Assembly (NCBI GenBank): GCA_964510885.1
Contig: CAZEDL010000002.1
Coordinates: forward strand, 64,707-128,706
Length of the DNA stretch: 64,000 nucleotides
Reading direction: 5' to 3'
Source of the DNA: an uncultured Gammaproteobacteria bacterium
Lineage (GTDB): Bacteria > Patescibacteriota > Patescibacteriia > Magasanikbacterales > GWA2-37-8
The notes beneath the pieces were generated by a model. The model saw only the letters and a program-made list of their open reading frames with translations. It was not told the origin of the DNA and did not search any database. The translations under genes and the position numbers were made by a program. Positions 10,141 through 45,373 of this stretch are shown here, in pieces. Each line of letters opens with the position of its first letter. The stretch's first letter is position 1.

Positions 10141-10160
10141 GAAAAATTAAAAATATTTAA

Positions 10161-10324: not shown

Positions 10325-11882
10325 CTAGGCGACGCGCTTTGCCCGATACTGCTGAAATGCGTCGATGACGCAGCCATTGTACTGGGGGTAGGCCCCGGTG
10401 CAACCGATGAGCTCGATCATCTCTCCCCAGTAAGGGCGCCCTTCGGGCGAGGCCACGATCTCGCCAGACCACCACACGGCCAGGAAGGTCTGGACACGCT
10501 TGCCCGAGCCGTCTGCCGGGCCGTCGTACAGGAGAATGGCCCGATCATCGGTCAACAGGCCGGTCTCTTCGCGCAGCTCACGGGCTGCTGCCTCGAGCGG
10601 GTCCTCATCACTGAGCTCGTGCTTGCCCGCCGGCAGAGCAATACCGCCATCCGCCCGCTCAAACAGGAGGACCTCGTTCGTCGCCTCGTTGTAGACGAGC
10701 ATGCAGGCGGCGAAGACCGGATCAGTGGGTGCCGCCACCGTGAAGTCAGCGTGGAGCTTACGGTAGGGCGGCAAGGGCCCGTGAGAGGTGGTGCCGAAGC
10801 GCAGCTTGTGCTGCGGCAGGAACGCCACCTGGCCGTTCGCGAGCGCGATGGCGTGGAAGAGCTCGTTGGCGGTGTGCCACTCAACGGTGAACAGGTACAC
10901 GCCTGACAGCCACAGCCCCTGCCGCACGAAGTAGGCGTCGACACTACCCTGCAGCGCCTGATGAACATGGACAACGATCTCGTTCGTGGGGCAGTTCTTG
11001 TAGATGAGATCTTCGAGACCGAGGTTCGGCTCGAGCAGGCCATGGGCAGGGTCGGCGAGCAGAAGGGCGGACGGCGGCAGATAGGAAAAGATGCCGCCGT
11101 TGTCCAGGTAGACCTGAAACGTGATGGCTTCGCCCTGATACGACGAGACGCTGAAGGCCATGCCGGGTTCGTACTGGCCCTGGTGAGACGGGTCCATGTC
11201 GTAGAGGTACTCCGCGCGGACCCAGACGCGCAACGGAGTGATGTCCGCGTGGATGAAGCCGCGAACGGGCGGCTGCCCCGGGAGCACGGGCAAGCTCCTC
11301 TCCACGAACACCTGGGTGAAGATGGTGACCTCGTCGAGACTCCAGCAGGGCTGAGCGTCGGGCGGTCCGGGGATCTGATCGCGCTCGCTGCACGGACCGG
11401 ACTGACCGGTGAGCGCGTCGAGGCGAATCTCGTAGAGGTGCTGCTTGGGCATGATGCCGCTGGCCACGAGCCAGTGCAAGTACTCCACGATCACCTTGAT
11501 GCCGCCGGCTTCGAACGGGGTGGGAATGAGCGGGTTGGCGTCGTAGTGCAGCACGATGACCAGGTCGCGCTCCGGGCGGAGCAAGTGAACGAGGTCATGC
11601 GGGTTACGCAGGCCTTCGATCACGCAGCCGCCAGAGCGGACAGGGTAGCGCGCGCGGATGAAGTCGACGCAGGCCGCGGGGTTGTCGGCAAGCTGCGTCT
11701 GGGAGAAGCGGGTGATCGCCTCGACATAGGCCTGGCGACCGTGCTCGGGCCGCGGGCCCTGGTAGCGCTGCCTCACCCACTCTGAGGCGGGGATATGTGT
11801 CAGGCCATGCTCTGCGGCGAGAGCCTTGGCCAGCGTCGTCTTGCCGACCTGACTCCCGCCGATTACGAGGATATTGCGTTGC
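10325..11882 (-). CDS. P-loop kinase (NadR ribosylnicotinamide-kinase/AAA_28-like) - unknown central domain - Nudix hydrolase fusion (GC-rich gene)
   Basis: Likely start is MQRNILVIGGSQVGKTTLAKALAAEHGL...ASEWVRQRY; this mirrors the NadR RNK pattern GGESSGKS...AWEYGREF. The C-terminus carries a Nudix box (GKHELSDEDPLEAAARELREETGL). The ORF-track extension to 12103 is probably read-through of stop-poor GC-rich DNA. Confidence 0.7.
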
Positions 11883-11894
11883 ATGTCTGTCTCC

Positions 11895-12476
11895 TCAGCA
11901 GGGGTTGACCGCGCCCTTGAACTTGTTCTTCTTAGTGCTCCACTGGGCGATGATAGCGAACACCATGTGCTTCTCGGGCACGAAGGTCGCCGAGGTCTTG
12001 CGCACCACGATGCCGAGACCCTCGCGGCGGCTGCCGTCCGGGTACTCGACCATGATGTACTTGACCGAGAACTCATCGCCTGGGAACGCCGACACTTCCA
12101 CATAGCGATCGAAGAACCAGCCGGCCTCAGTCACCGGTTTGCAGTCACCAAAGCTGATGGGGGTTCCCCAGGTGACTCGCGTTTCATGGACGGCCTCGAA
12201 GCCGTACCCGAACTCGAACGCCACTCTCTCATGTAAGTACTGTCCGTCGCAGTCCATGCTGAGACGCAGGTTCTTGCGCAGGGTTCCCGAGGCATGACGC
12301 TCGATGAACTCTCCCCGCGACATGAGCCGCGCCGCAACGCGCCGGGCGAACGACTTGCACTTGCGGACGGCTGGATCCATCGGGCACTTCTGGGTCGCCC
12401 GGCTTTGCCCGATGCGGATAGACGGGGTGACTGGCTGAAGTCCTTTTTGCTCTTTCTTTCTATCTTTGTTCTTCAT
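11895..12476 (-). CDS. hypothetical basic protein, operon partner of the kinase-Nudix gene (GC-rich)
   Basis: 193-aa ORF ending 13 nt upstream of the kinase-Nudix start, with the same skewed GC-rich composition. No recognisable motif. Confidence 0.5.
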   Translation of the reverse strand: MKNKDRKKEQKGLQPVTPSIRIGQSRATQKCPMDPAVRKCKSFARRVAARLMSRGEFIERHASGTLRKNLRLSMDCDGQYLHERVAFEFGYGFEAVHETRVTWGTPISFGDCKPVTEAGWFFDRYVEVSAFPGDEFSVKYIMVEYPDGSRREGLGIVVRKTSATFVPEKHMVFAIIAQWSTKKNKFKGAVNPC

Positions 12477-16653: not shown

Positions 16654-17169
16654 ATGTCATTAGATGATAATAATGCGTTGGGAATGGAATTTGCAGTTCT
16701 AAGAACTAGTCGAGACCGTTTAGAAAAAAACAATACTGAAGCAGATAGGGCTTTACTTAAAAATATTTTTTTTAAGCCTGAGGGAAGCCAATTTTCGATT
16801 GATGGAGAATTTAAAAAAGATGTGTCCGCTGCCGGAGGAAATTTTAATGCGGCCTCAAATAAACTTAACCGATTAGTACAGTTGGCCTGGAAGGAAAAAG
16901 CGGGGCCAGAGGGAAGATTTGAATTCCGAAGCGATGGTTTTAGAACCGAGGATACGGAAGGATATATAAACGCTCAAAATGATGTGATTGATGATTTGTT
17001 GGAATTTGGTGGTAGCGATTTTCAAGTACTTCTTAATTCATATCTAGGCCAAGGGAATCAACAGACAGACAAAAGATTGCGTGCGGGAGACAAATTAAAG
17101 GACACTGCTTATGAAATATGTAAAGTAGTCGATGATTTCTTTCAGTCAAGAAATCGTGCATTTAAATAA
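16654..17169 (+). CDS. hypothetical protein
   Basis: 171-aa ORF with AT-rich codon usage and no motif recognised. It sits between the peroxiredoxin and SOD genes. Confidence 0.45.
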   Translation: MSLDDNNALGMEFAVLRTSRDRLEKNNTEADRALLKNIFFKPEGSQFSIDGEFKKDVSAAGGNFNAASNKLNRLVQLAWKEKAGPEGRFEFRSDGFRTEDTEGYINAQNDVIDDLLEFGGSDFQVLLNSYLGQGNQQTDKRLRAGDKLKDTAYEICKVVDDFFQSRNRAFK

Positions 17170-25179: not shown

Positions 25180-26007
25180 ATGAAGAATAATACTGGTCCT
25201 GTTATCACTTCGATTGGCATGGCTTTCCTTACGCTCACTATCGCTACCGGTTTTATGTTGCGCGGACATGTGCTGCATGAATCAGATGAAGCCTACCCAA
25301 CTGAACCGATTATCCTGCCACTAACCGATGACGCGGCTCTTGCCAACGACCGCACCGGTGCAACCCAGGCACCGCCGGCCAAAAAATCAGTGGACCAGGT
25401 AGCCACTCCTACATCACCAACCAAACTGATTTTGGAACCAGTGGCTTTCATTTCGCAAGCTCCACGCGGCCAATGGGATAATCAGGATTTTCAGGATGGC
25501 TGCGAAGAAGCGTCGATCCTCATGGCGATGAACTGGGCCACAGGAGCTACCCTTAATATGCGCGATGCTACCACTGATATACAGCGACTGATTGATTGGC
25601 AGCATGCTTCCCCTGGCGGCTACCACCATGATATTTCTGTTCATGATACAGCCCAATTAATCCGCGATTACTACCATTATGAGCCAGTCACGATCCGAGA
25701 AGAGGTTACGGCCCAAACGCTGATCGATATTTTGGGTGATGGCAGCGTGATCATTGCACCGGTTAATGGACAGCTGCTTGATAATCCCTATTTCACTGCT
25801 CCGGGACCGGAATACCACATGCTGGTAGTGATTGGGTATGATCCGGTAAAAAAAGAATTTATCACTAATGACCCAGGCACCCGGCGCGGCAAACAATTTC
25901 GCTATAAAGAAGCGCAATTCATGACGGCCCTGCGCGATTATCCGAGCGGACACCATGAACCGATCACTGAACATAATAAACGCATTATTATAGTGAATAA
26001 GCGGTAG
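25180..26007 (+). CDS. secreted peptidase C39-like domain protein
   Basis: N-terminal TM/signal region and QWDNQDFQDGCEEASILMAMNW, the catalytic-Cys region of the Peptidase_C39_2 pattern. Confidence 0.5.
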   Translation: MKNNTGPVITSIGMAFLTLTIATGFMLRGHVLHESDEAYPTEPIILPLTDDAALANDRTGATQAPPAKKSVDQVATPTSPTKLILEPVAFISQAPRGQWDNQDFQDGCEEASILMAMNWATGATLNMRDATTDIQRLIDWQHASPGGYHHDISVHDTAQLIRDYYHYEPVTIREEVTAQTLIDILGDGSVIIAPVNGQLLDNPYFTAPGPEYHMLVVIGYDPVKKEFITNDPGTRRGKQFRYKEAQFMTALRDYPSGHHEPITEHNKRIIIVNKR

Positions 26008-26586
26008 TCTTTGAAAAATCACTGGCGTAAATCGGTGTTTTTTAATAAATACCCCCGGGTCCGAACCCCGAGATATCGGGTGGTCTGTCTAGGGCAATAT
26101 ACTAAACAAGGTAAATCGTCCATTATAAATCTGTTTTTAACCGGGCGTACCTTGATTGGAGATATAATTTTTGATCATGGCCTCGTTACCGTATTGACCT
26201 ACGTGTTGACATAGCACCTACTTGTCCAAAGGTTGCTGCCTCATAGTATATTCTTAATTTTGGAATACGCCTTAAGTAGGGCCTTAGTGGTGACACTTTT
26301 GATGGTTTTGACCAGATCGCTGACTGATATATTCGGGATACCTTGAACCAAGCAATAGACATGATTATCATTAGATCCAATTTCAAGAAAATTCATTTGA
26401 TAGCAGGCACCAATTTCTAAACAGGTTTTTGAACCTTTGCTCTACATATTACATTCCCGCCCCGTGGCAGCGAGAAACCACTGCGGTTTCTCGTGTTCTT
26501 TCCTCATGAATATTCCAGCGCAGAGCTTTGAGGAATAGAAGATTACCGGTCTTAACTGCCTGGGCTTGATGAAGTAGTACAGCCGA

Positions 26587-26676
26587 TTGTCGTCCTGAGC
26601 CTAGTGAAGGCCCCCTTGAAGCCAACTATGCAGAAAGTAGGCGTTGAAGGACTCTTCGCTGCACCCAGAATGACAA
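26587..26676. repeat. palindromic MITE/REP-like unit
   Basis: ttgtcgtcctgagcctagtgaagg ... cttcgctgcacccagaatgacaa inverted pair, the same family as the 5.5 kb and 23.0 kb elements. Confidence 0.65.
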
Positions 26677-26766
26677 TCATGCACCAAGCTCTAAAAGCCT
26701 AGTAATATTGACAACGAATCTCAAACAGACCACCACACTTGGTGTACTACTTTTAACGAAAGCTCT

Positions 26767-29532
26767 ATGCATTATCGTTTTATTTCTTGTGTCCTGCTAT
26801 TATTTACGATTATTTTTATTACCGTCGAGCCACGGGCGACTGCTGCCACTGAGCCCTCGCCTCCTTCTCACCCCAGAATTTTATTGACGACTGACACGAT
26901 GGCCACGCTCAGGAAAAAGATGGCGGCAAAAGACTTGGCTTGGCTGGCCTTACAATCGCAATGCAACTCGGTTGCAGGGAAAGGCGTCGAATATCCGGAT
27001 GGCGAAGATTATAGCAATACAACGCTTGGCGAAGGCTACCAAGGTGAAAATTATTTTGACCCTCTTCTTAACCTTGGGCTCTGTTACCAATTAGTGAAAA
27101 CTACTGATCCCGCGGCGGCCAGTCGCTACGCGAAACGCGGTGTTGAACTACTTGCTAAGATATCTATTCCAAAAGGAAAAACTCATTACCAAGACCCACT
27201 GCGTGACAGTGGCTATGGGATTCGTTTTTTCGGGGTGGGTATGGCTATTGGCTATGATTGGCTGTATGAAGCACTGACACCGGGCGAGCGGACACAAGTA
27301 TATACTTCCTTAAATCATTGGATCGCGGACTTTGAGCGCGCTGGTTTTGGCCGTCAGCATCCCCAAGGGAATTATTTTGCGGGTTACTATGCAGCTAAAG
27401 CGTTAGCCGCCATTGCGACTGCTGGTGATAATCCTACCGCCTCTACACTCTGGGATTCATGGCTTACTACCCAGCATTATGGTTTTGTAGTGCCATATTA
27501 TACCAAGTGGCTGAAGGGTGGGGGTTGGCCGGAGGGGTGGAATTATGGGCCGCTGGGGACTATCAATATGCTGTGGCCAACCATTGGCGCCTTGACCGGT
27601 AAGAATCTGAACCTGATAACTTCTACAGATAAACCGTTTTCTTTCTTAGAAGATCAGGCAGCTTACTTACTGTATTTTCTCTGGCCAAACCAGCGAACAA
27701 TGGATGATCGGGGCGCTCTCTATGCCGGCGATAATCCGGCGGGAGCTAATGTAAAAGTATATACATTTTTAGCCGGGACCCTCAGCCAATTTAATCGCTC
27801 GGACGCAGCCTGGTTTCAGCGACTGAGCCGCGAAGTGCGGGCTAGTAATAGCGCATCTGCAAACCCAGCGTGGGAAGAATTATTATTTTGGGACTCAGAG
27901 AGTCCGGAAGTGGATTACACTACCAAGCCCTTATCGTATGTCGCAACCGGGCTAAATCAGGTAGCGGTGCGCTCGTCATGGAGTTCGGACGCGGTATGGG
28001 CCTCGTTTAGCTCGGGACCGTATATTAATTATCCTGGTTCTGGTGAACAATCTTTTGATCAAGGGGGATTAGCGATCGTAAAAGGTGGTACGCCATTTTT
28101 AGTCAATCCAGCTGGGGCACTATTACGTAATAAAATTCCAGGCAAAGCCGATAAAAATTTTGGCAATGAATTATATGCCGATGCGTACGATACCCGGCCA
28201 CGCACTTTGAACAATGTTTTTTACCCAGGTAAAGGCCAGCTAGCCAACTCTCCGAGCCTATCTTCACCACCTGAAGCGCCACGCACGCGCCTGACGGATT
28301 TTGAAGAAGCGGGAACATATGTCGCCTGGAAAGGAACTGAGCTGGCCGATATGTACCCTGCTAAGACAGCAACGACATGGGATCGTGAAGTAGTCTACCT
28401 GCGGCCAGGTATATTTATTGTTCATGACCAGACAACCATTCCGAACCCAGCAGTTGACCAATATCAAGGCTTTCATCTCACCTATACTCCCGAAGAAATT
28501 GCGGCTCCCGATACGAATAGCCATCGTTTCGCCGTGACTCAAAATGGACAACGTCTTGGTACGGTGACTACGCTTTGGCCAGTGAAAAATAAAACCACGC
28601 TGCGCAATGTTTTTAATAGTAATAAAGTGTACCGGTTGGAAGTACGGCCAAATGAACCCCAAGGAAGTGTGGATTGGTTAACGGTATTTGATGTCACCAC
28701 TACCGACGGACAGACCAACACTCTTAAACGACTGATCCCACTCAGGGGTGCAGGTCAGGGGGTACTGGCTACGGTAACTGGCCGGGCAGCGGCCGTATTG
28801 TTTGTCACTCATCCAACAGAGTTGGTATCGTATACAGTACCTGCGGAGACGACCGAGCACATTGTGACGCAACTTATTCCTGGTAATCGGTATGATATTT
28901 CCACTAAAAAAGTTGGTACGGCTTATGAAATTACGATTGCTCCTGGCACTATGGTAGTGGCCAGCGCCGCGGGCCGACTTCATTTTACAGCTAGTGCTGA
29001 CGGGGTAACGCTGAATCCTGCCTCATCTCCTATCCATCCCACTACCCTACCTCCTAATAATCCGACTACTCCGAGTACTCCTCGAACCACGAAAACTGTG
29101 TATCAATTAAAAAATAATGTGCGTGGCGTTACTTTTTTGACTAGTTCCGAAACAGAAAAAAACCGCCTGTTAGGCAGTCCGCGCATCTGGTCGCTTACTG
29201 ATGAAACGTTTCAGGTCAGTACTGGCAATTGTGAGACTAACAATGAGCTACCGGTGTACCGATTTTCTCGGGCTGATGGCGGTGATTATATGTACACTAA
29301 AAATGTGACTGAAATTGCACTACTAAGCCGGTGGCGTGGCTGGAAAAATAATGGTTCGGTGTTTTGTGCCACCACGACCCGCTCCGATAATAATCTGCCA
29401 GTGTATCGTTTTTATGATCTTAGCCGTAACATTCATGAATTTACGGCCGACCCCGCGATCTATTCCGTTCGGCGCGCGACTCCTGGTCGTTATCGTTATG
29501 AAGGAGTAGCATTTTATGGATTCCCTCGGTAG
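26767..29532 (+). CDS. large secreted protein; possible polysaccharide-lyase (heparinase II/III-like) N-region with C-terminal PVYRF...HxFT repeats
   Basis: Signal peptide, a 921-aa body and two C-terminal LPVYRF... repeat units. The enzyme family assignment is tentative. Confidence 0.4.
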   Translation: MHYRFISCVLLLFTIIFITVEPRATAATEPSPPSHPRILLTTDTMATLRKKMAAKDLAWLALQSQCNSVAGKGVEYPDGEDYSNTTLGEGYQGENYFDPLLNLGLCYQLVKTTDPAAASRYAKRGVELLAKISIPKGKTHYQDPLRDSGYGIRFFGVGMAIGYDWLYEALTPGERTQVYTSLNHWIADFERAGFGRQHPQGNYFAGYYAAKALAAIATAGDNPTASTLWDSWLTTQHYGFVVPYYTKWLKGGGWPEGWNYGPLGTINMLWPTIGALTGKNLNLITSTDKPFSFLEDQAAYLLYFLWPNQRTMDDRGALYAGDNPAGANVKVYTFLAGTLSQFNRSDAAWFQRLSREVRASNSASANPAWEELLFWDSESPEVDYTTKPLSYVATGLNQVAVRSSWSSDAVWASFSSGPYINYPGSGEQSFDQGGLAIVKGGTPFLVNPAGALLRNKIPGKADKNFGNELYADAYDTRPRTLNNVFYPGKGQLANSPSLSSPPEAPRTRLTDFEEAGTYVAWKGTELADMYPAKTATTWDREVVYLRPGIFIVHDQTTIPNPAVDQYQGFHLTYTPEEIAAPDTNSHRFAVTQNGQRLGTVTTLWPVKNKTTLRNVFNSNKVYRLEVRPNEPQGSVDWLTVFDVTTTDGQTNTLKRLIPLRGAGQGVLATVTGRAAAVLFVTHPTELVSYTVPAETTEHIVTQLIPGNRYDISTKKVGTAYEITIAPGTMVVASAAGRLHFTASADGVTLNPASSPIHPTTLPPNNPTTPSTPRTTKTVYQLKNNVRGVTFLTSSETEKNRLLGSPRIWSLTDETFQVSTGNCETNNELPVYRFSRADGGDYMYTKNVTEIALLSRWRGWKNNGSVFCATTTRSDNNLPVYRFYDLSRNIHEFTADPAIYSVRRATPGRYRYEGVAFYGFPR

Positions 29533-29799
29533 TTAATCTTTCCATTTCCACCAGTCTAATAATTCTGGATTATGCGTAGTATGCGAGGCATAATATACAG
29601 CACAATGAAAAACGTATAACAGACACCGATCCTGTACAACGCCAGCTAATCGGTTGGAATGTTGATATAATTTTTCCGGATCTTTACCTCTTAAACCTGC
29701 TACGGAACGAATGCCAATACTATATAGATCGTTGGCGATACTCTTCCCCACACCGGGAATAATTTTCAGTTCTTTAAGACAGGTATTTTTATCTTTCAT
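29533..29799 (-). CDS. helix-hairpin-helix small protein (Cdd1 'pathogenicity locus'-like)
   Basis: KELKIIPGVGKSIANDLYSIGIRSVAGL HhH motif. Start chosen at MKDKNTCL; the ORF track's extension to 29901 would overlap ogt. Confidence 0.5.
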   Translation of the reverse strand: MKDKNTCLKELKIIPGVGKSIANDLYSIGIRSVAGLRGKDPEKLYQHSNRLAGVVQDRCLLYVFHCAVYYASHTTHNPELLDWWKWKD

Positions 29800-29878
29800 A
29801 CTTAATGAACGGTAAAATACGTGATAGTTTCTTCCAAACGAGCCAGCACGTGACGGTTGAAAGGCGACAACTTCTTTA

Positions 29879-30214
29879 CTAAGAGGAGGCGCTTGCCTCA
29901 CTATGCACCCCTTCCCATCCGATCAAGGCTCGTTTGCGGCTACTCCCCCATCGATATTGTCCAATTAGGCCCGTACTTTTAATCACGCGGTGACAGGGTA
30001 TAAGCACTGCCACTGGATTGTCCCCAATCGCGGTTCCAACCGCGCGTTGTGCTGCTGGTCGACTGACCGCGCCGGCTACCCGGGCGTAGGAACACAGCTG
30101 CCCTTCCGGAATAGTGAGCAGTGCTTCCCAGACTTTTAGTTGAAACGAGGTTCCTTTCAGGTGAAGTCTTATTTTATCTGTAGGAGCCAATTGAGTAGTT
30201 AAAAATTTTTGCAC
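29879..30214 (-). CDS. ogt: methylated-DNA-protein-cysteine methyltransferase, C-terminal catalytic domain
   Basis: PCHRVI active site with FQLKVWEAL...IPEG. A short out-of-frame ORF at 30244-30342 (MNHYTTVAKALEFIASESKRQPSFEYSGHKPI) looks like the missing N-terminal portion and may be frameshifted. Confidence 0.8.
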   Translation of the reverse strand: MQKFLTTQLAPTDKIRLHLKGTSFQLKVWEALLTIPEGQLCSYARVAGAVSRPAAQRAVGTAIGDNPVAVLIPCHRVIKSTGLIGQYRWGSSRKRALIGWEGVHSEASASS

Positions 30215-30461
30215 TTGCTGGTGACTATCCGTAATTCCAGCTACTAAATTGGCTTGTGGCCAGAGTACTCGAAGCTGGGCTGCCGCTTGGATTCACTGGC
30301 AATAAACTCGAGGGCTTTAGCGACGGTAGTATAGTGATTCATAGTGAATAGTTTAAGCCCCCTACTCTTTACTAATCGCATTCAACTGGAAAACCGAATC
30401 TTACTGATTTTTTAATCAGACTGTCTAGCCTACTTAAAAAAAATAAAATTTATAACTCCGA

Positions 30462-30890
30462 CTATTTTTTTCTACTATCTTTAGCCTGTGCTACCAAACT
30501 ACCAAGAGCTAACTGATCAGTATCGTGGGCTACATATCCTTGATATATTTTATCAAGTAATTCGGCGGCCAACCATCGGTCACCCAGATTACTGTCGGGG
30601 GCAGCTGAGGGTAGCGGCCCATCTCCGTGTATTAACCGCATGCTATTGGCATAATGCAACTCTGCTTTTATGGTTGCTATCCGGCCCGAGAGTAAATCTG
30701 GCATAGTTACTTCAAGCAGATTTAATGCATTAGTCAAGAATTGAAATAATTCTTGATCGCTATAACCAGTCTTATAATCTCTTTGCTGACGCATTACAGT
30801 ATATATTTTTTTTAAGACTGCTTCTGATATTTCTCCGGTTGGCTCTCCTATACCCTTGAATTCACCACTTTTCATATTACACTTTGGCAA
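30462..30890 (-). CDS. hypothetical protein
   Basis: 142-aa ORF in an AT-rich stretch with no motif recognised. Confidence 0.45.
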   Translation of the reverse strand: MPKCNMKSGEFKGIGEPTGEISEAVLKKIYTVMRQQRDYKTGYSDQELFQFLTNALNLLEVTMPDLLSGRIATIKAELHYANSMRLIHGDGPLPSAAPDSNLGDRWLAAELLDKIYQGYVAHDTDQLALGSLVAQAKDSRKK

Positions 30891-31187
30891 CTAATTATTT
30901 TGTTAATTAACTTTTACCACTTTACCATAGATTTTATGACTTGGTCTAGCCAGCAAATTATTAAAACAGATTATAATTTTACAGTTAAAAAGGAGAATCA
31001 ATATTTTATTTGATACTTATCAATTCGGTTAATGGTGTAGAATACAAAAACAACCTTCGGCAGAAAGTTGTTTTTGGGAGATGCGGACTTATGCTAAGGT
31101 TATTGTTAAGATGTAGTCCGCCGCACATCCCTTCTTAGCTATTTGATTCGGCCCTGTAACCTGTAAAGTCTAAAGGCAGAACGAGGG

Positions 31188-31805
31188 TTAGACCAAGTCA
31201 GGCGCCGCCTCTCTAAGAGCAGTTTGCATCTCGGCAACTAGCCTAGCTCTTAAGCGGCTGACCCATGACTTGCTTAGCCCTAACACCATCGCAGCCTGCG
31301 TACTATCTTTCCCTTCCATAAATAATAGTGCATAGAGCCGGGGAAGGGGAGGCTCGAGCTTAGCCACCGCCACCTGAATTATCTGGAGTAGTTCTTGCTG
31401 CCCTGCGGACACTTCAGGGCTAGCCGTATATGGATCAGGTACATGAGCCGCTTGTTCGAACGGAACTCGAACCGGCTTCTGGTCGGGTCTCAGGCCTTGA
31501 TTCACCAGGGCCCGCTCGCCTCGGGATAGGGTGTCATACTGGCGGAGGTCATCGAGTATCTCACCCGTAACCCGATAATAGGCATACGTATTAAACTTGT
31601 TTCCTCTTTCAGGATCGAATCGTTGACCCGCCTGAATTAAGCCCAGCAAACCATCCTGGATCAGGTCATCCCTCTCAACAGAGAGGGGGAATTGTCTGAT
31701 ATTGGCATTGACGATGACACGCAACATCCTTAACGCTTCTTCCCATTCTCTTTCGTCTACATTACCAGGTGGCGTAAGCCTTCTCAGGTCAATTTTTTTC
31801 TTCAT
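31188..31805 (-). CDS. sigma-70 family factor (group 3 / FliA-SigF-like), GC-rich gene
   Basis: Region 2 (DLIQDGLLGLIQAGQRFDPERGNKFNTYAYYRV) and region 4 HTH (LSKSWVSRL). The ATG at 31805 is preceded by GAGGGG; a GTG start at 31841 is an alternative. Confidence 0.75.
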   Translation of the reverse strand: MKKKIDLRRLTPPGNVDEREWEEALRMLRVIVNANIRQFPLSVERDDLIQDGLLGLIQAGQRFDPERGNKFNTYAYYRVTGEILDDLRQYDTLSRGERALVNQGLRPDQKPVRVPFEQAAHVPDPYTASPEVSAGQQELLQIIQVAVAKLEPPLPRLYALLFMEGKDSTQAAMVLGLSKSWVSRLRARLVAEMQTALREAAPDLV

Positions 31806-31961
31806 GTTCCCCTCACGACTTTCGTTAAAGAGCTCTTCCACTCATGATAAAGCACTTATCCTAACTATCAAAAAATTAACCTTATGTCCAGTCTAATTCA
31901 TTTTTGTTAAAAATTATTTATTCATATATCTCAAGCCGAGATCTACGGCGACATTTATTTG

Positions 31962-32414
31962 ATGAGTATCGACGCCTCCACCGTGCGGTGGCGACTGGAC
32001 CCTGGTGGCCATTTCCCGATCGGCGGGACCTGCACCTGGATGCTGAGCGGCGTGAAGCGGTCGGGCGGGAGGGTGCTTGACCCGATCGTGCTGACCTTCA
32101 CGGTACGTGGATTCACCCCGCAAGAGCTGTGCCTTGAGGTCCCGCTTGGCGTGCTCAAGCTGCCTGACGGGAAGACCCCAGGCCAGTTCCACTGCCTGAA
32201 CTACACCCTGCCCGTGACGAGATGTATCTGCTCGAGACCCGGGTGGTCGGCACCATCTGCTACGTCATCGCGACGCTGCCCAGCGCGACTGATCCCGAGT
32301 TCCGATATGCGGTCAACCAGACCATCTCGAACGAGTGGAGGGGCTGGGGGTACTTCTATCAGATATCCCTCCAAGCGTCAGATGAGGACAAGTGGAGGTC
32401 AGAGGCCGGCGTGA
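31962..32414 (+). CDS. hypothetical small protein divergent from the sigma factor (possibly frameshifted; alternate frame continues to 32428)
   Basis: GC-rich ORF MSIDASTVRW...; the last ~50 codons look like out-of-frame Gly/Arg-rich read-through. A second frame (32222-32428) gives a more protein-like C-terminus (...RYAVNQTISNEWRGWGYFYQ...). Confidence 0.35.
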   Translation: MSIDASTVRWRLDPGGHFPIGGTCTWMLSGVKRSGGRVLDPIVLTFTVRGFTPQELCLEVPLGVLKLPDGKTPGQFHCLNYTLPVTRCICSRPGWSAPSATSSRRCPARLIPSSDMRSTRPSRTSGGAGGTSIRYPSKRQMRTSGGQRPA

Positions 32415-32509
32415 CCGAGTGCCACTGACGTAGCCATCCCTCCAGCCAGGTCCCTCCCTTTTTACTACTCTCGTCTATCCGATTTAATTTTTCGACAGGC
32501 GCCATGAAC

Positions 32510-32575
32510 AAAAAATCGGCCCTCTCATCCCCCTGCTTCTAAATTTTAGAAGCAGGGGTAGGAGCCGATTTTTTG
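32510..32575. terminator. large bidirectional hairpin terminator
   Basis: aaaaaatcggc...cccctgcttctaaattttagaagcagggg...gccgatttttt, between convergent genes. Confidence 0.65.
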
Positions 32576-32707
32576 TTTTATAATTTTTACTCACGGTTTA
32601 TGCCTGCAAATATTTTTTTTTAAAACGAGCAGCTCGGCATAGCCGTTTACCGGAATGGTGCTGCTAATAGATCCTCAAATAATTTATTTTCCGCCCCATT
32701 CGCCGAC

Positions 32708-33082
32708 CTATTCTTCACCCACTGGTTTTTCAGTTTCGCTGACTCGTTTTTCTAGCCGAATCCCCAGTGGCCGGGGACAGATCACTGCACAACGATTCTG
32801 CAAACAGAGCGATGTATATGGACAGCTGGAGCGGATAAGATAGTTTGTGGGTGTAGTGCAGTCACTATGTTGTACACAGGTGGCAGTAGTAACTTCAGCA
32901 ACGTCATACTCATCGCGCGAATAGCCGATGGGCACAGCGGGCGGCTCTTCGTTATTCGCTCGGTAGACTGGGGCGTGATCTGTTTGGCTGGGGCTAACAG
33001 CTTTTTCCGGCAGCACTTTATATCCTACCCCGACTGATACCATTAGGATAGCGGCAATGAGAAAATATTTTTTATATGTCAT
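32708..33082 (-). CDS. small Cys-rich secreted protein
   Basis: N-terminal TM/signal region and 7 Cys in the last 45 residues. Confidence 0.5.
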   Translation of the reverse strand: MTYKKYFLIAAILMVSVGVGYKVLPEKAVSPSQTDHAPVYRANNEEPPAVPIGYSRDEYDVAEVTTATCVQHSDCTTPTNYLIRSSCPYTSLCLQNRCAVICPRPLGIRLEKRVSETEKPVGEE

Positions 33083-33131
33083 AGCAAAAATTAGTTTCTT
33101 TTTACCTTGTAACGAGCCCCGTTAGCCCCGC

Positions 33132-33878
33132 TTAGATAGCCAAAAACCAGAAGAATGGTTTTACTATGGAGGCGAATAACCGAAACACATAGAGTACGAA
33201 TGGTTTCGAGTTGTTGGATAGGCTGGGAAACTTTGGAACCCCGTTGTCACCAGGTGAATCTGGCGTGACAGAAGATATAGCAACTGTTGCTGGTAAAAAC
33301 TTCTGGGAAGGATTCGGCTGCGGCGCGACCAGCTGTGCCAAGGCATGGTAAGACACGGAGCCAGAATTTATAAACTTGAGCCCGGTCAAGAATTTTGGTA
33401 AAGGACTATTCGTTACCGGCACGCGCAGCGAGGGACTACTGCGGCCTTCGGGAGCAGCAGTATACGATGGTAGCGGAAAATAACCGCCGGCTTCGCCCAG
33501 AACAGACGACGTTGATGCTGCCTGACCGACGGTGGGGTCGCCCGGGCAATAAAACTTGCCAGCGGTGGTAGACATGGTACACCCCGAGAGGCTTGATCCG
33601 TTGCTAAAATTCTGTCCGCCACCAGACCCTCCGGTTGTTTGACTTAACGGTAAAAAAATTATAGCGGCGGCGGTTCCAGCACTTGTATAGCCGTTTCCAG
33701 ATACAATCTGAGCCGATGGGTTGCCACCGGCTTCAGCACTGAAACCATTGCCGGACACCACGCCGCCTACTGCATTCACCTGCCCGTCGATAGTATAGCC
33801 ACCGCCAGTCTGTGCAGCCAAAACAGTAGCCGGAAACATGGCGAGAGTGAAAGCAAAAATAAAGAAAAACTTAGTCAC
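33132..33878 (-). CDS. secreted Gly/Ser-rich protein
   Basis: Signal peptide MTKFFFIFAFTLAMFPATVLAAQ followed by a low-complexity G/S/T-rich body. Confidence 0.5.
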   Translation of the reverse strand: MTKFFFIFAFTLAMFPATVLAAQTGGGYTIDGQVNAVGGVVSGNGFSAEAGGNPSAQIVSGNGYTSAGTAAAIIFLPLSQTTGGSGGGQNFSNGSSLSGCTMSTTAGKFYCPGDPTVGQAASTSSVLGEAGGYFPLPSYTAAPEGRSSPSLRVPVTNSPLPKFLTGLKFINSGSVSYHALAQLVAPQPNPSQKFLPATVAISSVTPDSPGDNGVPKFPSLSNNSKPFVLYVFRLFASIVKPFFWFLAI

Positions 33879-33879
33879 A

Positions 33880-34281
33880 TTATTTTTTTAGAGGCAATAC
33901 ACCGGAATTCAGCTCAAACGGACCCGAATTAACAATGATGTGTCGAGAGGAACTATAGATAACGGCTTTTTTGGCAATCGGAAAGATGATCAATATATCG
34001 CCAGTCTTGGCTCCGCGGTAGAATGACTGCTCATGCGTGAGGGTAGCGGCGTCAGAAATAGTAGCAATAATCGGGCGCTCGTTTGGAATGAGCATTAAGC
34101 GGCCCACTGCTTCGATCACTCGGGCCCGATCATCAGAACCAAAATTTGTCGCTGTACTTACGCGCGTGAAATGCATGGCACCAAGCAGCAATAACACAAC
34201 AAGCAAAATTCCGGCGCCGATTGAAATAGGGCTCAGGTGAAATTTTAATCGAGTGATGGCGCTAGCTAAGCGGTGCGACAT
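33880..34281 (-). CDS. single-TM hypothetical protein
   Basis: 133-aa ORF with an N-terminal TM helix, tightly spaced with its neighbours. Confidence 0.45.
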   Translation of the reverse strand: MSHRLASAITRLKFHLSPISIGAGILLVVLLLLGAMHFTRVSTATNFGSDDRARVIEAVGRLMLIPNERPIIATISDAATLTHEQSFYRGAKTGDILIIFPIAKKAVIYSSSRHIIVNSGPFELNSGVLPLKK

Positions 34282-34284
34282 ACA

Positions 34285-34764
34285 TTATCGTTTGGTAGCA
34301 GTTGGGGTGACAGCGGGCAGGCGCACCCGGGGTTTAACAGGCGCAGTTACCGGTGCTGGCGCTGGAACTTTTGGTTCGTCACGATTCACTGCCGCTACTG
34401 CCATAATTTTTTTAGTGCGCGGCCGATAGAGAATAGCTTGAGTTTCAAAAATTATTATATAATCGCCGGCTGCAGCTTTGGCAAAAAATAGCTGGTCTTT
34501 TGGCAGTTTTTCAACTTCAGATACCACGGCAATCTGCGGAACGCCGGCCGGCAATTCTATAATTTTTCCTACATCATGGAGCACCTTGGCAGTTACTTCT
34601 TCGGCTAATTTTTCTTGATAGGCCGGATTTTTAAACTGGTACAGCCGATAGCTTGAGTAAACGGCGATTGTGGTAACTGCAGCCCCGCCTATAATTAAAG
34701 CGGTCACCAGAATAGTTTGCCACTTTTTTTTAGGCTGAAGTGGAGCCAGGTTTGCTTCCTCCAT
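34285..34764 (-). CDS. single-TM hypothetical protein with Pro/Ala-rich tail
   Basis: N-terminal TM helix and a C-terminal PAPAPVTAPVKP tail. Confidence 0.45.
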   Translation of the reverse strand: MEEANLAPLQPKKKWQTILVTALIIGGAAVTTIAVYSSYRLYQFKNPAYQEKLAEEVTAKVLHDVGKIIELPAGVPQIAVVSEVEKLPKDQLFFAKAAAGDYIIIFETQAILYRPRTKKIMAVAAVNRDEPKVPAPAPVTAPVKPRVRLPAVTPTATKR

Positions 34765-34791
34765 AAGATACGAGTTAGCTAGAGTCTATGA

Positions 34792-37700
34792 CTAAGGTGT
34801 AGACGTGACAACCAGTTCTTCTAACGGCTGAGACGTTAGTTCGAGAGGGGCAGGTTCGTCGGTCTCTTTTTCCGGAGATGACTCCCCTGTTAATGGAGCT
34901 GGTTCAATGAGTGGTGGTGTGAGTGGCGTGGCTGGAACAGCAGCAGGATCTACTATTGCCGCCGGTGGAACCAAACGATTCGATTCTGCCTGAAGTAACT
35001 GCTCTAATTTGTCACCAGTAATACAGACTTCACCGCCAGCTGATTTTTTGAGGCACAACTGATCAGCATGAATTTTTTTGGCAAACAGCTCCGTGAAGTA
35101 TCCCCGCACGGCCGAGATCCGAGCCGCTACGAAATCAGTGAGGACTTTGTGGCCAGCGCTCATTTTTTTACTGATAATTACAATTGGGTCGCTCGCTACT
35201 TCAGACTGAATAGTGGAGATGAGGCTCGCGATACCAGTGTCGGAAGTCGGCGTAATATCCCCGAGCAGTACTTGCTGGTCTTGAATAGATTGCACAAGGA
35301 GCGGGGTGAGGCGACCATAATCAACTGCCCACGGATCAGTTTCAGCATCTACGCCGCCCACCGAAACGACTTGCGGAAAAATATCATACAATTCTTGGGC
35401 AATAAAGCCTTGCTGCACTTTACCAGGGGCGGAAATAAAATTAAAATCACGGACTTTTATTTTAAGTAACGTGTCGAGCCCGTGCGCGGTGGCGGTTACA
35501 TTTTCCTTGCGCCTGGCATCTGAAGTGGTAGGGCACGTAACACCCCCGGCATTGTCGCCTTGACACTGCCCAAGCAGCGTGCCGTCACCATCGATAAAAC
35601 GAATAAAATGATTGGTCGTATTAGGATTAGCGTTTGGCCCAAGCTGGATACCAATCCCATCGGCATCGACCGTATTATTGGTATTGCGAAAAGTAAAACC
35701 GGTAGAGGCAATGCCAGTGGTGAAATTCTGAATACCGGTGCCGGCGTTAAAATTGAGGGCTGTGGCACCAGTCGTGTTACCAATAGTGACGGTATTAGCA
35801 ACACTGCCGGTACCGATGTTAATGATTTTACTACCAGTGCCACCAGTTCCGAAATTGAGTGTTTGCGCACCGGTGCCGGTGCCAATGCTGATTGCGCCGG
35901 TTTGGGCGCCGGTGCCACCGATATTAATGACACCGGTAGTCATGGAGTTGCCGATCAAAATAGAACCGGCGTTTTGAGTATTACCAAGACCAACAGAGTT
36001 GGCCGCAGTACCGCCAATGGTAATAGTTTGCACTGCGGCTGATGTACCGATATTTATGGCCCGGGACACGGCATTGGTGCCAATATTGATTGCACCGGTT
36101 CCCGCGATTAAACTAAGCGAGGTGGCCCCGGTACCATTACCGATGGTGATAGTTTTTGCACTGAAAGCTGTACCAATATTGAGCGCACCAGTCGTACCAC
36201 TATCGAGAGACAGGGTGGTGGCATTGCCAGAGCGCAGTGTGAGCGCACCACCACCGGTAATAGTAGCATTGGCGGCGCCGAACCCAATCGTGGTGGCAGC
36301 CCCACCAATATTAAGAGTGGTGGCAGCCGTATTAAAAAGCGCAGCCGTGTTGTTAGTAGTGCTCAGCGTGCCGCCATTGAGGCTCAGAGCGCCAGATATC
36401 GTAATATTGCTACCATTATTTTGCAGCGCTGCAGAACGCACCCAATCGGTGCCATCGAAATACATCGTATCATTCGCAACTTCTCCACTCAAAGAAATTT
36501 TGGCACCACTGATTGCATTATTGATGATATCTGTGCCGGCAATCGTATCGGTTAGATTTAGTTTACTATAGGCGATATCTGCACCATCAGCAATGTCATC
36601 ATTAACGATACTGTTGTTAACAATTTTACTCGAATCAACGGAATCGGTAGCTAATTTGGCGAGCGTGACATTAGCATTAAGAATTTTACTAGTGGTCACA
36701 GCATCATTAGCAAGCTTGGCAGTGGTGACAGCCAGGTCATTTAGTTTTTCTGTTACAACGGCGAGATCGGCTAGCTTGCCCGCAGTCACTCCAAGGTCAG
36801 CCAATTTCGCTGTGGTAATGGCTGCGTCCAAAACTTTTACGGTCGTAACTGCATCAGCGGCCAGCTTACCCGCGGTCACCGCTAGATCATTAATTTTGGC
36901 AGTCGTGACAGTTAAATCAGCGAGTTTGGCTGTTTCGACTGCGCCATCGGCCAATTTGGCAGCGGTAACGGCAGCCGCTTGTAGCTTGGCGGTTGAAACA
37001 CTGACATTAGCCAGCTTGCTCGTATCTACCGAGGCATTTACCAGCTTACTCGTGTCTACAGAATCTGTGGCCAGCTTATCAAGCGTTACCGCAAGGTCGG
37101 CCAGCTTGCCAGTCGTGACTGCAAGATCATTAATTTTGGCGGTGGTAATAGCATTATTTATCAGCTGATTAGTTGCCACCGTATTAGCTGCTATTTTGAG
37201 GGTCGTAACTGCACCATCGGCTAATTTGCTTTCAGTAATGGCTGCATCTTGGAGATTGCTGGTGTCGATTGACTGCGCGGTAAGTGTAGCTAGCCCCCCG
37301 GCGGTAACCGTGAGATCACCGGATACTGTTTGTCCGGTGGGAACATTACTCCCATTCCCAATAAAAATTTGCCCAGTTGGGAGAGTGGCCGCTTGTTTAT
37401 TGTTGAAGGCAGTCCAGTCAGCGGCCGAGAGAAAACCATCGGTCGTGGCTCCGGCTTCGGCCAATCCTAATACTCCGGATGCGCTGTCGTAAGAGAGTGG
37501 TGCACCAGATACCGAGAGGGCGCTACGGGCGCGGGCCGTCGAAAAATATTGGTTAACTGCACCTTCGGTAAGATCATCGGTAGTTTTAGTAGCAAGGCGG
37601 GCATCAAAACGAGCTGTGGTGTAATACAGATTATTACCTCCTTCCGACAAATCATCGGTTGTTTTGGTAGCAAAATCGGCAGCAAAGAGGCTGCTGGCAT

Positions 37701-38442
37701 AATATTTATTAGATGTACCTTCGGCTAAATCATTGCTGGTTTTAGCGTTAAAACGAGTGTCGAATAAGCTATCAAACAAAGCCATCACCCGGGCATCAGC
37801 CCGCGTGTCGGTAAAGTAGCGATTCGTAGCCCCTTCGCTCACCTGATCGGTGGTGTAATCGCCGCTCGTCGCTACCACAGCTCCAGTGCGGGTATTAAAT
37901 GAAGTCACGCCAGTCGGGGGTCCAGCTTGGAGTCCTTGCCAAGCAGCGCCGTCATACACATAAATAGTGTTGTCGTCGGTATCAAAATATAATTCTCCTG
38001 GGGTGGCCGTGGTTGGCGGAGCGGACTGAGCCACGAGGCCGTAGGATGTGTGGGCATAGGCCACCGCATTAATTGCGGTGCGCGGCGACATTTCACCGGT
38101 ACCAAGGGTAGTAATCTCTAAACTTAAAAAATACTGCCTATCAAATGGTAAGGCAGCAATTGATGTATAGGTTCCGCCGAGATGGGTGCCCGTGCCGATG
38201 GCAACTGAAAAATAGCCATTTGAGAGGCTGGTGCCCGGATGAGTTTCATCAAGTAGCAGTGTACCCCCGGCGGCGGCGTCGTAGATACGGGTACGAATAA
38301 TATGCGAACCAGACTGAGGAGATCCCGCAGAATTAGTCACGTAGCCATCGTAACCAATAGTTTGTGGAGCGGCCAATGCTAAGGCTGGCGCCAAAATGGT
38401 TGCTCCTACAAATATACTGAGTAAGAATCGTGAAAAAGCCAT
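34792..38442 (-). CDS. giant secreted repeat protein with C-terminal tail-fibre intramolecular chaperone (peptidase S74) domain
   Basis: Signal peptide and about 25 tandem 11-residue repeats (…AVTTAKLADLAVT…). The S74 signature is SDARRKENV...GFIAQELYDIFPQVV, followed by a further ~200 aa. Confidence 0.8.
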   Translation of the reverse strand: MAFSRFLLSIFVGATILAPALALAAPQTIGYDGYVTNSAGSPQSGSHIIRTRIYDAAAGGTLLLDETHPGTSLSNGYFSVAIGTGTHLGGTYTSIAALPFDRQYFLSLEITTLGTGEMSPRTAINAVAYAHTSYGLVAQSAPPTTATPGELYFDTDDNTIYVYDGAAWQGLQAGPPTGVTSFNTRTGAVVATSGDYTTDQVSEGATNRYFTDTRADARVMALFDSLFDTRFNAKTSNDLAEGTSNKYYASSLFAADFATKTTDDLSEGGNNLYYTTARFDARLATKTTDDLTEGAVNQYFSTARARSALSVSGAPLSYDSASGVLGLAEAGATTDGFLSAADWTAFNNKQAATLPTGQIFIGNGSNVPTGQTVSGDLTVTAGGLATLTAQSIDTSNLQDAAITESKLADGAVTTLKIAANTVATNQLINNAITTAKINDLAVTTGKLADLAVTLDKLATDSVDTSKLVNASVDTSKLANVSVSTAKLQAAAVTAAKLADGAVETAKLADLTVTTAKINDLAVTAGKLAADAVTTVKVLDAAITTAKLADLGVTAGKLADLAVVTEKLNDLAVTTAKLANDAVTTSKILNANVTLAKLATDSVDSSKIVNNSIVNDDIADGADIAYSKLNLTDTIAGTDIINNAISGAKISLSGEVANDTMYFDGTDWVRSAALQNNGSNITISGALSLNGGTLSTTNNTAALFNTAATTLNIGGAATTIGFGAANATITGGGALTLRSGNATTLSLDSGTTGALNIGTAFSAKTITIGNGTGATSLSLIAGTGAINIGTNAVSRAINIGTSAAVQTITIGGTAANSVGLGNTQNAGSILIGNSMTTGVINIGGTGAQTGAISIGTGTGAQTLNFGTGGTGSKIINIGTGSVANTVTIGNTTGATALNFNAGTGIQNFTTGIASTGFTFRNTNNTVDADGIGIQLGPNANPNTTNHFIRFIDGDGTLLGQCQGDNAGGVTCPTTSDARRKENVTATAHGLDTLLKIKVRDFNFISAPGKVQQGFIAQELYDIFPQVVSVGGVDAETDPWAVDYGRLTPLLVQSIQDQQVLLGDITPTSDTGIASLISTIQSEVASDPIVIISKKMSAGHKVLTDFVAARISAVRGYFTELFAKKIHADQLCLKKSAGGEVCITGDKLEQLLQAESNRLVPPAAIVDPAAVPATPLTPPLIEPAPLTGESSPEKETDEPAPLELTSQPLEELVVTSTP

Positions 38443-38820
38443 GTTTACAAATCAAAGGGTGATAATCTTAAAGAATGGCTAACTTTAGTACAAAATTGGC
38501 AATATGTCAAACCTAATACACGTGGTATAGCAAAATTTTGGCTATATGTAAAGGAAAAAGATATTTAGCACCTCCTTCTTTTCTCGTTCGACTTTCTTTA
38601 TCCATAATAGAAATACTCCCTGATTGGGGAGTATTTCTAGTTAGAGCGGGTGAGGGGAACCCTTTCAGGGAATCGAACTCGCTTCGCTCCCATGGGAACC
38701 TTCGGGTTCCCATGCACCTTCCTCAACATGAGAAAACTCTCGTTTTCTCCCTTTCCAGGTTCGGCTCCTTCATCCAAACTACAAATACAAACCTCCCTTT
38801 TTGAGGGAGGTTTGTATTTG

Positions 38821-38892
38821 AGCGGGTGAGGGGAGTCGAACCCCTGTCACCAGTTTGGAAAACTGGGATAATAGCCGTTATATGACACCCGC
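38821..38892 (-). tRNA. tRNA-Gly (anticodon UCC)
   Basis: Reverse complement GCGGGTG...CCAGT-TTTCCAA-ACTGG...AGGGG-TTCGACT-CCCCT-CACCCGC-T with a cloverleaf, U73 discriminator and no encoded CCA. The D-stem is imperfect. Confidence 0.6.
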
Positions 38893-44670: not shown

Positions 44671-44741
44671 CTTGAAATGCGAACGCCCCCGGAAGACAGA
44701 TGTCTCCCGGGGGCGGTGTTGGCATGTTAGGCATCAGCCTA

Positions 44742-45152
44742 CTAATCAGCGCCGGCGATTTGGCTGAGACGCTCTGCGTGGAGCGCCTCGGCGACTGCGC
44801 GGGTGAGCCAGAGCTGCATCCCGGGGAAGTCGCGCGCATTGAACCTTGCGGCCCAACTCGCGCTGCCCATCACGGTGTGCGCCTGCGCACCACTGTACAC
44901 GGTCACTTGCTCCACCACCTGGTCCTTGCGGACCATACGGAGGATCACCGCGCCGTCCATGTTTTCGTCAAGGACGAACTCGATGTTATCGTTTTCTGGG
45001 TCAGGCTCGGGCTTTACCTCGGTCTCTGGGGGCCAGCCCTCCCTGGGGGTTGCGGAACTCATCCAGGTCTCCTCCAACCTGGCGGCCTGCTGGGGTGTCA
45101 GATACCCCTTCTGGAAACTTTTCGCAATGTTCAGAATCTCGACGTGGATCAT
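44742..45152 (-). CDS. hypothetical protein (GC-rich gene)
   Basis: 136-aa ORF with an acidic middle region (PEPDPENDNIEFVLDENMDGAV); composition is strongly GC-rich compared with the flanks. Confidence 0.45.
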   Translation of the reverse strand: MIHVEILNIAKSFQKGYLTPQQAARLEETWMSSATPREGWPPETEVKPEPDPENDNIEFVLDENMDGAVILRMVRKDQVVEQVTVYSGAQAHTVMGSASWAARFNARDFPGMQLWLTRAVAEALHAERLSQIAGAD

Positions 45153-45373
45153 CTTCTACCTCTACGCTTTAGCGCTGTTGTTTCGGAACATCTTTCCACC
45201 ACCAACAATAGGTGATGGCCAAAACCAACGAAACAACATTTTTACATGCCGTTTAGTCACTGGTTCTGTGCCAAAATTTGGCTAAAACACTAGACTAAAC
45301 ATATAATAATAGCATAAAAAATGGATTTTGTCAAGAGTAATGAAATCACTTTTTAGCGCCCGTTACTAATCGT

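Follow-up and report, generated by a model that had tools for sequence, protein, structure and literature searches.

An accessory sigma-70 family gene of host-like composition beside a GC-rich, probably foreign and frame-disrupted gene islet in a Patescibacteria chromosome

The window analysed here, by which we mean a 64,000-nucleotide stretch of contig CAZEDL010000002.1 (assembly GCA_964510885.1) at its full length, is bacterial chromosome: it carries rpoB, ftsK, recA, dsbA/VKOR, recQ, the ribosomal protein S6 gene, ssb, efp and 2 tRNA genes, and the best named relatives of its RecQ, 63-66% identical, belong to Candidatus Magasanikbacteria, Uhrbacteria, Moranbacteria and the 'Patescibacteria group', which makes the organism a bacterium of the Patescibacteria, or candidate phyla radiation (CPR). 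The subject of this work is a locus around 32 kb at which a gene for a sigma-70 family factor stands divergently beside a short GC-rich islet, a pair that a preliminary description had taken for one GC-rich island with a foreign-looking sigma factor and its possible partner. The locus contains the following features, with open reading frame abbreviated as ORF and GC content at third codon positions as GC3.

31188..31805, minus strand: intact sigma-70 family gene of 205 amino acids (aa) from ATG 31805, with sigma2 and sigma4 and no sigma3
31844..31871, minus strand: sigma-70-type promoter-like site, TTGATA-16 nt-TATCAT, agreeing with 10/12 consensus positions (a consensus match only, its function presumed)
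31040..31075, minus strand: intrinsic-terminator-like hairpin and U-run 3' of the sigma gene, from fold and sequence
31935..32460, plus strand: GC-rich islet of ~525 bp, from the GC profile, GC3 and a codon-usage model
31959..32414, plus strand: divergent small ORF of 151 aa, from the ORF list
31962..32219, plus strand: islet gene part 1, frame A, from ATG 31962, ~86 aa; GC by codon position 0.62/0.50/0.84
32222..32428, plus strand: islet gene part 2, frame B, 68 codons, TGA 32426-32428; GC by codon position 0.51/0.46/0.83
32208..32221, plus strand: frame-disruption site CTGCCCGTGACGAG, a shift to the -1 frame equivalent to a 1-nt deletion
32507..32577, unstranded: very stable hairpin between an A-run and a T-run, a bidirectional intrinsic terminator, from inverted repeats I2/I3 and the fold

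The sharp jump in GC content noticed earlier at this locus stands up to measurement, and outlier statistics bear it out. The window has a mean GC content of 0.483 (0.483±0.051 over 500-nucleotide (nt) windows); in 200-nt windows the content peaks at 0.655 at 32000-32199, versus 0.29-0.40 immediately outside, and at 40-nt resolution it climbs from 0.20-0.25 to 0.60-0.70 over ~30 nt at ~31935-31965 and drops again at ~32460. The 500-nt window 31940-32440 reaches 0.619, a z score of 2.65 with respect to all 500-nt windows, and a value of 0.60 is attained elsewhere in the 64 kb only at 10.2-12.0 kb and 44.6-45.2 kb. The islet is almost exactly coextensive with one small coding sequence plus a 3' tail of ~30 nt, and the earlier wording 'extremely GC-rich' is apt for the third codon positions of that sequence (0.84) but too strong for its bulk GC content (0.62). 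The two halves of the islet gene have GC3 values of 0.84 and 0.83, compared with 0.485±0.076 in 48 other genes (z 4.7 and 4.5). Under a synonymous-codon model trained solely on the other GC-rich ORFs of the window (10325..11884, 11895..12476 and 44742..45152), the islet scores a log-likelihood ratio (LLR) of +0.316 per codon, z 5.0 with respect to host genes, whose mean is -0.405±0.145 and whose maximum is -0.053. The islet and its counterparts elsewhere in the window form one codon-usage class, to which the sigma gene does not belong: its GC content of 0.515 (z 0.6), its GC3 of 0.51 (z 0.4) and its codon LLR of -0.304 all fall within the host range. The span 31150-32450 is thus no single island, the islet being confined to ~31935-32460, and the view of the sigma gene as compositionally foreign has to be abandoned.

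The divergent ORF of about 150 codons exists as first described, and so does the frame switch suspected near 32215. The cumulative phase signal has its change point at 32216-32219, where the GC3 signal moves to the -1 frame and where the assembly reads, over 32208-32219, CTGCCCGTGACG. Frame A maintains a GC3 of 0.84 up to 32219, its continuation to 32414 having only 0.51, and frame B, the -1 frame, opens only at 32168. Each of the two plus-strand frames is open and reads like protein, and the tail of the 151-aa ORF past 32219 is rich in R, S, P and G, as would be expected of out-of-frame GC-rich DNA. Among the fates proposed earlier for this ORF, that of a decaying pseudogene, its frame disrupted at the change point, is the best reading. 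Coding on the minus strand was considered and rejected, given that the matching frame of the right half contains several stops and that GC at codon position 2 would there exceed that at position 1, the reverse order being found on the plus strand only. A structured RNA element was likewise rejected: the islet has no match in Rfam (the whole window was searched at gathering thresholds, and this part locally at E≤10), the searches having returned only the terminator hairpin, as chance miRNA-like matches, and its fold has z scores of -1.16 and +0.04 on the two strands relative to shuffles. Neither a recognisable promoter nor a Shine-Dalgarno sequence was found for the islet gene.

Joined across the change point, frames A and B give a protein of ~155 aa. 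A word-indexed search of 5.8 billion proteins with the merged 156-aa sequence returned no relatives, and when 1.84 billion representatives were searched exhaustively with HMMER just two proteins came up, both weakly, P0010 (E 1.3e-6, in 8 stretches) and P0011 (E 3.8e-4), both built of tandem immunoglobulin (Ig)/cadherin-like repeats; residues 8-73 of the islet protein align to ~12 successive repeats of P0010 with 27-38% identity over 33-60 aa. The ORF has no match in Pfam (also at E≤10), PHROG or PADLOC, back-translated DNA scans of viral contigs and of Joint Genome Institute (JGI) metagenome contigs yielded no relatives of the protein, and an exact 24-mer scan of metagenome contigs for the islet gave nothing. 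A single-sequence AlphaFold2 model is all-beta and unreliable, with a predicted local distance difference test (pLDDT) score of 35. In our reading the islet gene is a genuine or formerly genuine gene for a small beta-sandwich-type protein, otherwise an orphan.

The gene on the minus strand is, as the preliminary description had it, a group-3-like sigma factor made of regions 2 and 4 only. Its mechanical ORF, 31188..31841 (-), extends to GTG 31841; the likely start is ATG 31805, which follows a GAGGGG ribosome-binding site. In profile searches, region 2 is matched by Pfam Sigma70_r2 (PF04542; E 5.9e-14, 52 bits versus a cutoff of 24), and NCBIfam TIGR02937 gives an end-to-end match of 79.7 bits (cutoff 42.9), aa 27-197 covering profile positions 10-165 of 165. 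TIGR02479 (FliA_WhiG) scores 88.9 bits, below its cutoff of 189.6, with profile positions 6-84 of 224 aligned, that is, region 2 alone, and the protein falls outside that subfamily, membership of which spans the whole length including region 3. In the PDB the protein is best matched by WhiG and several FliA proteins, strongly in region 2 (aa 38-99) and weakly in region 4 (aa 129-198), the latter aligning to WhiG residues 205-274; the linker between the two regions measures 30 aa, versus 78 aa in Streptomyces WhiG, and in an alignment with 27 homologues the region-3 columns are absent from our protein. From this alignment AlphaFold2 gives a model of pLDDT 84 with two confident helical domains at aa 18-102 and 130-200 and a disordered linker, the top fold matches of which are all sigma factors. 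Region 4 is present by the end-to-end TIGR02937 match, by the alignment with WhiG and the homologues and by the modelled C-terminal helical domain. The gene accordingly belongs to the sigma-70 family as a divergent member, most similar to group 3 (FliA/WhiG), in which only regions 2 and 4 are present.

With its upstream promoter-like site and a downstream terminator stem ACAACUUUC/GAAGGUUGU, seen in the fold of 31190-31050 (-) and followed by a T-run read from the sequence, the sigma gene appears to be a self-contained intact unit, and its exact protein recurs on an independent Logan contig. The nearest homologues are ~30% identical (25-31%), the named ones coming from Pseudomonadota or 'Deltaproteobacteria' and none from Patescibacteria; the best of them sits among Ser/Thr kinase and response-regulator genes. 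GTDB species-representative contigs contain 3 distant matches without synteny, and viral contigs 2 distant ones. Since the gene lies within a 12.8-kb stretch in which the closest relative has unrelated genes, we regard it as accessory, and this location, combined with the distance and the non-Patescibacteria names of its homologues, makes an older horizontal origin plausible. The earlier claim that the sigma factor was acquired therefore survives as far as its accessory, lineage-specific location is concerned, its host-like composition speaking against it. The further idea that it rewires the transcription of acquired cargo found no backing, in that sigma-28-type promoters (TAAA-N15-GCCGATAA) are not enriched in the window, with 6 relaxed matches versus 4.0±2.3 in shuffles; those of the matches that were checked against the ORF list lie inside coding regions, none of them being intergenic. 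No flagellar genes were found among the window proteins scanned.

Two further observations concern the homologues. P0018, a 191-aa protein from Logan, is another short sigma homologue likewise without region 3, and a region 4.2 motif, LS/GLSKSWxSRLHARA, is common to our sigma factor and a subgroup of FliA-like homologues. Short region-3-less FliA-like sigma factors may form a distinct clade. CPR lineages are considered to hold few alternative sigma factors, and the present gene adds to the FliA/WhiG-like proteins a divergent member that has no region 3.

Taken together, we consider it probable that the locus holds two independent features that are merely adjacent: an intact accessory sigma gene of native composition, and a foreign islet gene with a break of the 1-nt-deletion type, most likely a recent acquisition turned pseudogene and not the partner of the sigma factor. 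On this view the sigma gene, which has a promoter-like site, a ribosome-binding site and a terminator to itself and belongs to a strain- or species-specific region, would encode an alternative factor, and this factor would bring RNA polymerase to a small regulon specific to the lineage, perhaps the neighbouring operon for secreted proteins and a fibre. The islet would represent one small gene of foreign origin, coding for a beta-rich protein of ~155 aa with a faint resemblance, in its N-terminal half, to one Ig/cadherin-like repeat, and this gene would have been acquired recently and then broken at 32208-32221 by a change of the 1-nt-deletion type. If so, an annotation trap is corrected: what is listed as a 151-aa ORF would be a gene with a broken frame, unrelated to the neighbouring sigma gene, whose composition is native.

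Several points weigh against this interpretation. What the sigma factor does, and at which targets, we only infer, and Pfam Sigma70_r4 and r4_2 score nothing on its protein even at E≤10. The 68-codon frame B carries an ATG of its own at 32222, and the GC-rich stretch matches a coding sequence from start to stop, which fits a whole gene, perhaps still partly expressed. The searches made brought up neither a donor nor a homologue for the islet gene, and its status as 'foreign' consequently rests on composition and on the analogy with a second islet described below. Finally, the contig L001 (from run SRR16481186; window 25848-32088), the sole independent contig to enter the islet, terminates in its middle, ahead of the frame-change site, and the indel accordingly counts as probable; look-ups of the exact products of the 151-aa, 68-aa, 117-aa and neighbouring 124-aa ORFs in independent assemblies returned none. 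The break of L001 inside the islet could reflect a drop of coverage in GC-rich DNA or a branch of the assembly graph through population heterogeneity.

The last point bears on the explanation that the islet gene is intact and the frame change an indel from sequencing or assembly, such as a C4 run rendered as C3 in CTGCCCGTG, with one product of ~155 aa. The change point does fall at a short C-run, the merged frames do give a continuous protein-like sequence, and no independent assembly crosses the site. However, the organism is also present in SRA runs SRR16481186 and SRR16481187, and 3 Logan contigs from these two runs (L001, 6241 bp; L002, 1218 bp; L003, 933 bp), 8.4 kb in sum, match the window without gaps at 100%. 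As the remaining long genes of the 64-kb window are moreover uninterrupted, the assembly can be taken as accurate at the base level, a random indel within the 467-nt islet ORF is a priori unlikely, and a three-base run is in any case atypical for homopolymer error; we thus hold an intact gene to be unlikely. The same data speak to the fear that the islet is an assembly chimera or a contaminant fragment from a high-GC organism of the same metagenome, a fear nourished by a composition very unlike the host's, by the interruption of the Logan contig within the islet and by the metagenomic source of the window contig. Here L001 argues the other way, because it reproduces, in the product of an independent assembler, the left junction between host-like DNA and islet; host-like sequence lies on both sides within one contig, the GC-rich stretch has a start codon and a stop codon as its limits, not arbitrary break points, and its sister, islet 1, has been inserted cleanly, with a conserved gene on either side. 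A chimera is very improbable on these grounds.

It is also conceivable that the islet holds either two small genes, one of ~85 aa with a lost stop or an unconstrained tail and a separate one of 68 aa from ATG 32222, or one gene expressed by programmed -1 frameshifting. In favour of two genes, the frame B ATG is preceded by GACGAG, and a TGA at 32215-32217, off frame A by a single base, resembles a stop-start junction; yet frame A is free of stops until 32414, so that an indel would still be required. Frameshifting finds nothing in its favour: a slippery heptamer (X XXY YYZ) is missing from CTGCCCGTGACGAG, frame A has no stop codon at which ribosomes would stall, and the local structure is not significant (islet fold z -1.2). 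Since the site lacks a heptamer and a 65-codon out-of-frame stretch has, by our own estimate, a chance of ~15% of staying open at this composition, the openness of frame A to 32414 gives such a mechanism no support, and there are no homologues in which two genes or a frameshift could be seen conserved. We accordingly rate this pair of possibilities as quite unlikely. Least of all, along with the chimera, do we credit the proposal that the small ORF is or was the functional partner of the sigma factor, as an anti-sigma or as co-acquired cargo. The ORF is divergently adjacent, starting ~90 nt upstream of the sigma -35 element, and both genes are orphan-like, but their codon usage is completely different, which points to separate evolutionary origins, and the ORF has no match in any anti-sigma family, FlgM/RsiG-type or other. 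The partners known for such sigma factors are helical, unlike the beta-rich, Ig-like islet protein; the ORF is, in addition, frame-disrupted, and neither gene has relatives in which the pairing could be seen conserved. An intact native sigma gene beside a broken foreign one remains our preferred interpretation.

The sigma gene and the islet lie in a variable region with the following features.

26002..38816, unstranded: 12.8-kb lineage-specific variable region from the C39-like peptidase gene to tRNA-Gly, from comparison with GCA_964585245.1
~26170-26420, minus strand: degenerate IS200-like (Y1_Tnp) transposase remnant with 3 in-frame stops (Pfam PF01797, 3.3e-11)
32708-38442, minus strand: five-gene operon, a 1216-aa tail-fibre-like gene followed by 4 small secreted/membrane proteins
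38820-38892, minus strand: tRNA-Gly, the region boundary, from tRNA prediction

The closest relative, GCA_964585245.1, with RpoB ~95% and RecQ 79% identical to the window proteins, shares with the window the two flanks, RadC-RecQ-C39 peptidase and tRNA-Gly-EF-P-aminoacyl-tRNA synthetase; between them it has 6.4 kb of unrelated genes, homologues of the genes in the window's 12.8 kb being undetectable there, and a second relative has different genes again after RecQ. That the closest relative lacks the whole of this region counts, like the abrupt borders of the islet, in favour of a foreign origin of the islet. Apart from the sigma gene and the islet, the region codes for a DUF5648 protein, Cdd1, an MGMT-like protein, the 142-aa ORF and the products of the operon. 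The IS200-like remnant lies in a 760-bp gap at the left edge; no integrase was found among the window proteins scanned, and no att-like copy of the tRNA-Gly end. The 1216-aa protein matches PHROG tail fibre (2.7e-39) and carries a Peptidase_S74 chaperone domain, and the 4 small proteins are without a family match. The operon is a candidate for a lineage-specific surface fibre, and to regard it as the target of the neighbouring sigma factor is speculative.

Within this region the islet sits between the sigma promoter-like site and the bidirectional terminator that ends the upstream operon; intergenic space of this sort can accommodate insertions. The terminator hairpin folds at -44.7 kcal/mol on the plus strand and -48.8 kcal/mol on the minus strand (z -7.4 and -8.4); it closes the minus-strand operon 38442->32708 and would terminate the islet ORF too. 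An integron cassette was rejected, the hairpin being devoid, on inspection, of RYYYAAC/GTTRRRY core sites and having the look of a plain terminator, with no integrase detected. The islet flanks have no repeats in common with the rest of the window, and the sole repeat flanking the islet, an AT-rich 24-nt direct repeat at 31901-31924 and 32570-32593 with 75% identity, was judged to be due to chance.

Two other islets of the window share the codon usage of the one at 32 kb.

10141-12741, unstranded: islet 1, 2.6 kb, between recA and dsbA
10325..11884, minus strand: islet-1 gene for a 519-aa fusion of P-loop kinase-like, PHROG 'ferredoxin' and NUDIX parts, with ATG 11884 indicated by GC3 phase and ribosome-binding site
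11895..12476, minus strand: GC3-rich islet-1 gene of 193 aa without a family match
44742-45152, minus strand: islet 3, a 136-aa ORF of the same codon class, GC3 0.79, without a Pfam or PADLOC match

Islet 1 holds two intact genes with GC3 0.79-0.80. The listed 592-aa ORF of the fusion gene is over-extended, and in an NCBIfam search of 5 other islet and neighbour proteins only this NUDIX-containing protein was matched, weakly and far below the cutoff. In GCA_964585245.1 recA directly abuts dsbA and islet 1 is absent, which is direct evidence for a recent insertion of DNA with this composition into the lineage; in view of islet 1 it is likely that the islet at 31.9-32.5 kb shares this origin. 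At islet 3 a longer plus-strand ORF, 44700..45215, was rejected as a gene, since with its high GC at codon position 1 it is an antisense shadow of the 136-aa ORF. A segment at 4197-5210, between conserved rpoB and ftsK flanks, is unaligned to the relative, and ORF 4415..5047 (-) codes there for 210 aa with GC3 0.66 and a lipoprotein-like N-terminus. Outliers in the opposite direction, with low GC3, are ORF 16654..17169 (+) at 0.27, the Cdd1-like gene at 0.31 and the 142-aa ORF downstream of the sigma gene at 0.32, the latter two falling in 29533-30890 (-).

Several islets of one foreign codon usage in a CPR genome, one of them a proven insertion, could serve to trace gene flow and perhaps hosts. 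It is tempting, if doubtful, to go further and to see in the islets at 10.1-12.7, 31.9-32.5, 44.7-45.2 and perhaps 4.4-5.0 kb the repeated capture of DNA from one high-GC donor, possibly the host of the ultra-small Patescibacteria cell, and in the region-3-less sigma factor a regulator of the surface-fibre operon for contact with that host. Were this true, the broken islet would be a snapshot of uptake followed by decay, and the islets would be usable to identify the host organism.

When compared with known systems, the sigma factor is closest to FliA and WhiG, its best matches in sequence and fold (PDB 1RP3, 6PMI and 9WSF for FliA; 6PFV/6PFJ and 7LQ4 for WhiG). Region 2 is ~45% identical to that of WhiG over 62 aa and there contains the motif YA..R..G..LD.LR, and the helix-turn-helix of region 4.2, LGLSKSWVSRLRARL, aligns with theirs and is common to a subgroup of homologues. 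It differs from both in the absence of region 3, in a disordered linker of ~30 aa in place of ~78 aa, and in its host, a Patescibacteria lineage without members among the named homologues. Minimal sigma factors consisting of sigma2 and sigma4, usually with a co-transcribed anti-sigma, define the extracytoplasmic function (ECF, group 4) family, with which our protein shares this architecture and a size of ~200 aa. Its sequence stands nearer to group 3, no ECF-specific family being found among the 25 best NCBIfam matches listed, which are led by FliA/WhiG and SigB/F/G, and an adjacent anti-sigma is not recognisable, the downstream 142-aa ORF and the islet ORF matching no anti-sigma family.

The islet protein, for its part, resembles the Ig/cadherin-like tandem repeats of giant surface proteins such as P0010 (2432 aa) in a pattern of W..., GG..D and YTFTP.GP.P.E.C. 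It differs from these repeat proteins in being a single copy without an evident signal peptide, with an unmatched C-terminal half and no Pfam match. As to the islet itself, a review of genomic islands (PMC2704930) works with atypical GC content and codon usage, a size of islets below 10 kb, tRNA adjacency, direct repeats, and integrase or mobility genes. By these standards the 525-bp islet is atypical in composition; the 12.8-kb region, at a GC content of 0.479 versus the window mean of 0.483, is not, and it combines adjacency to a tRNA and absence from relatives with a lack of flanking repeats and of an integrase. The islet departs from genomic islets in that it is a single gene and not a multi-gene element, and in that neither an integrase nor flanking direct repeats nor an att site turned up and no donor came to light. 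What it has in common with them is its atypical GC content and codon usage and its size below 10 kb, and it shares with genomic islets and ORFan pseudogenes a position in a variable region beside a tRNA gene, a transposase remnant nearby and the loss of its reading frame (PMC2704930). The sigma gene and the islet are, in sum, ordinary products of gene gain and decay, all within known kinds.

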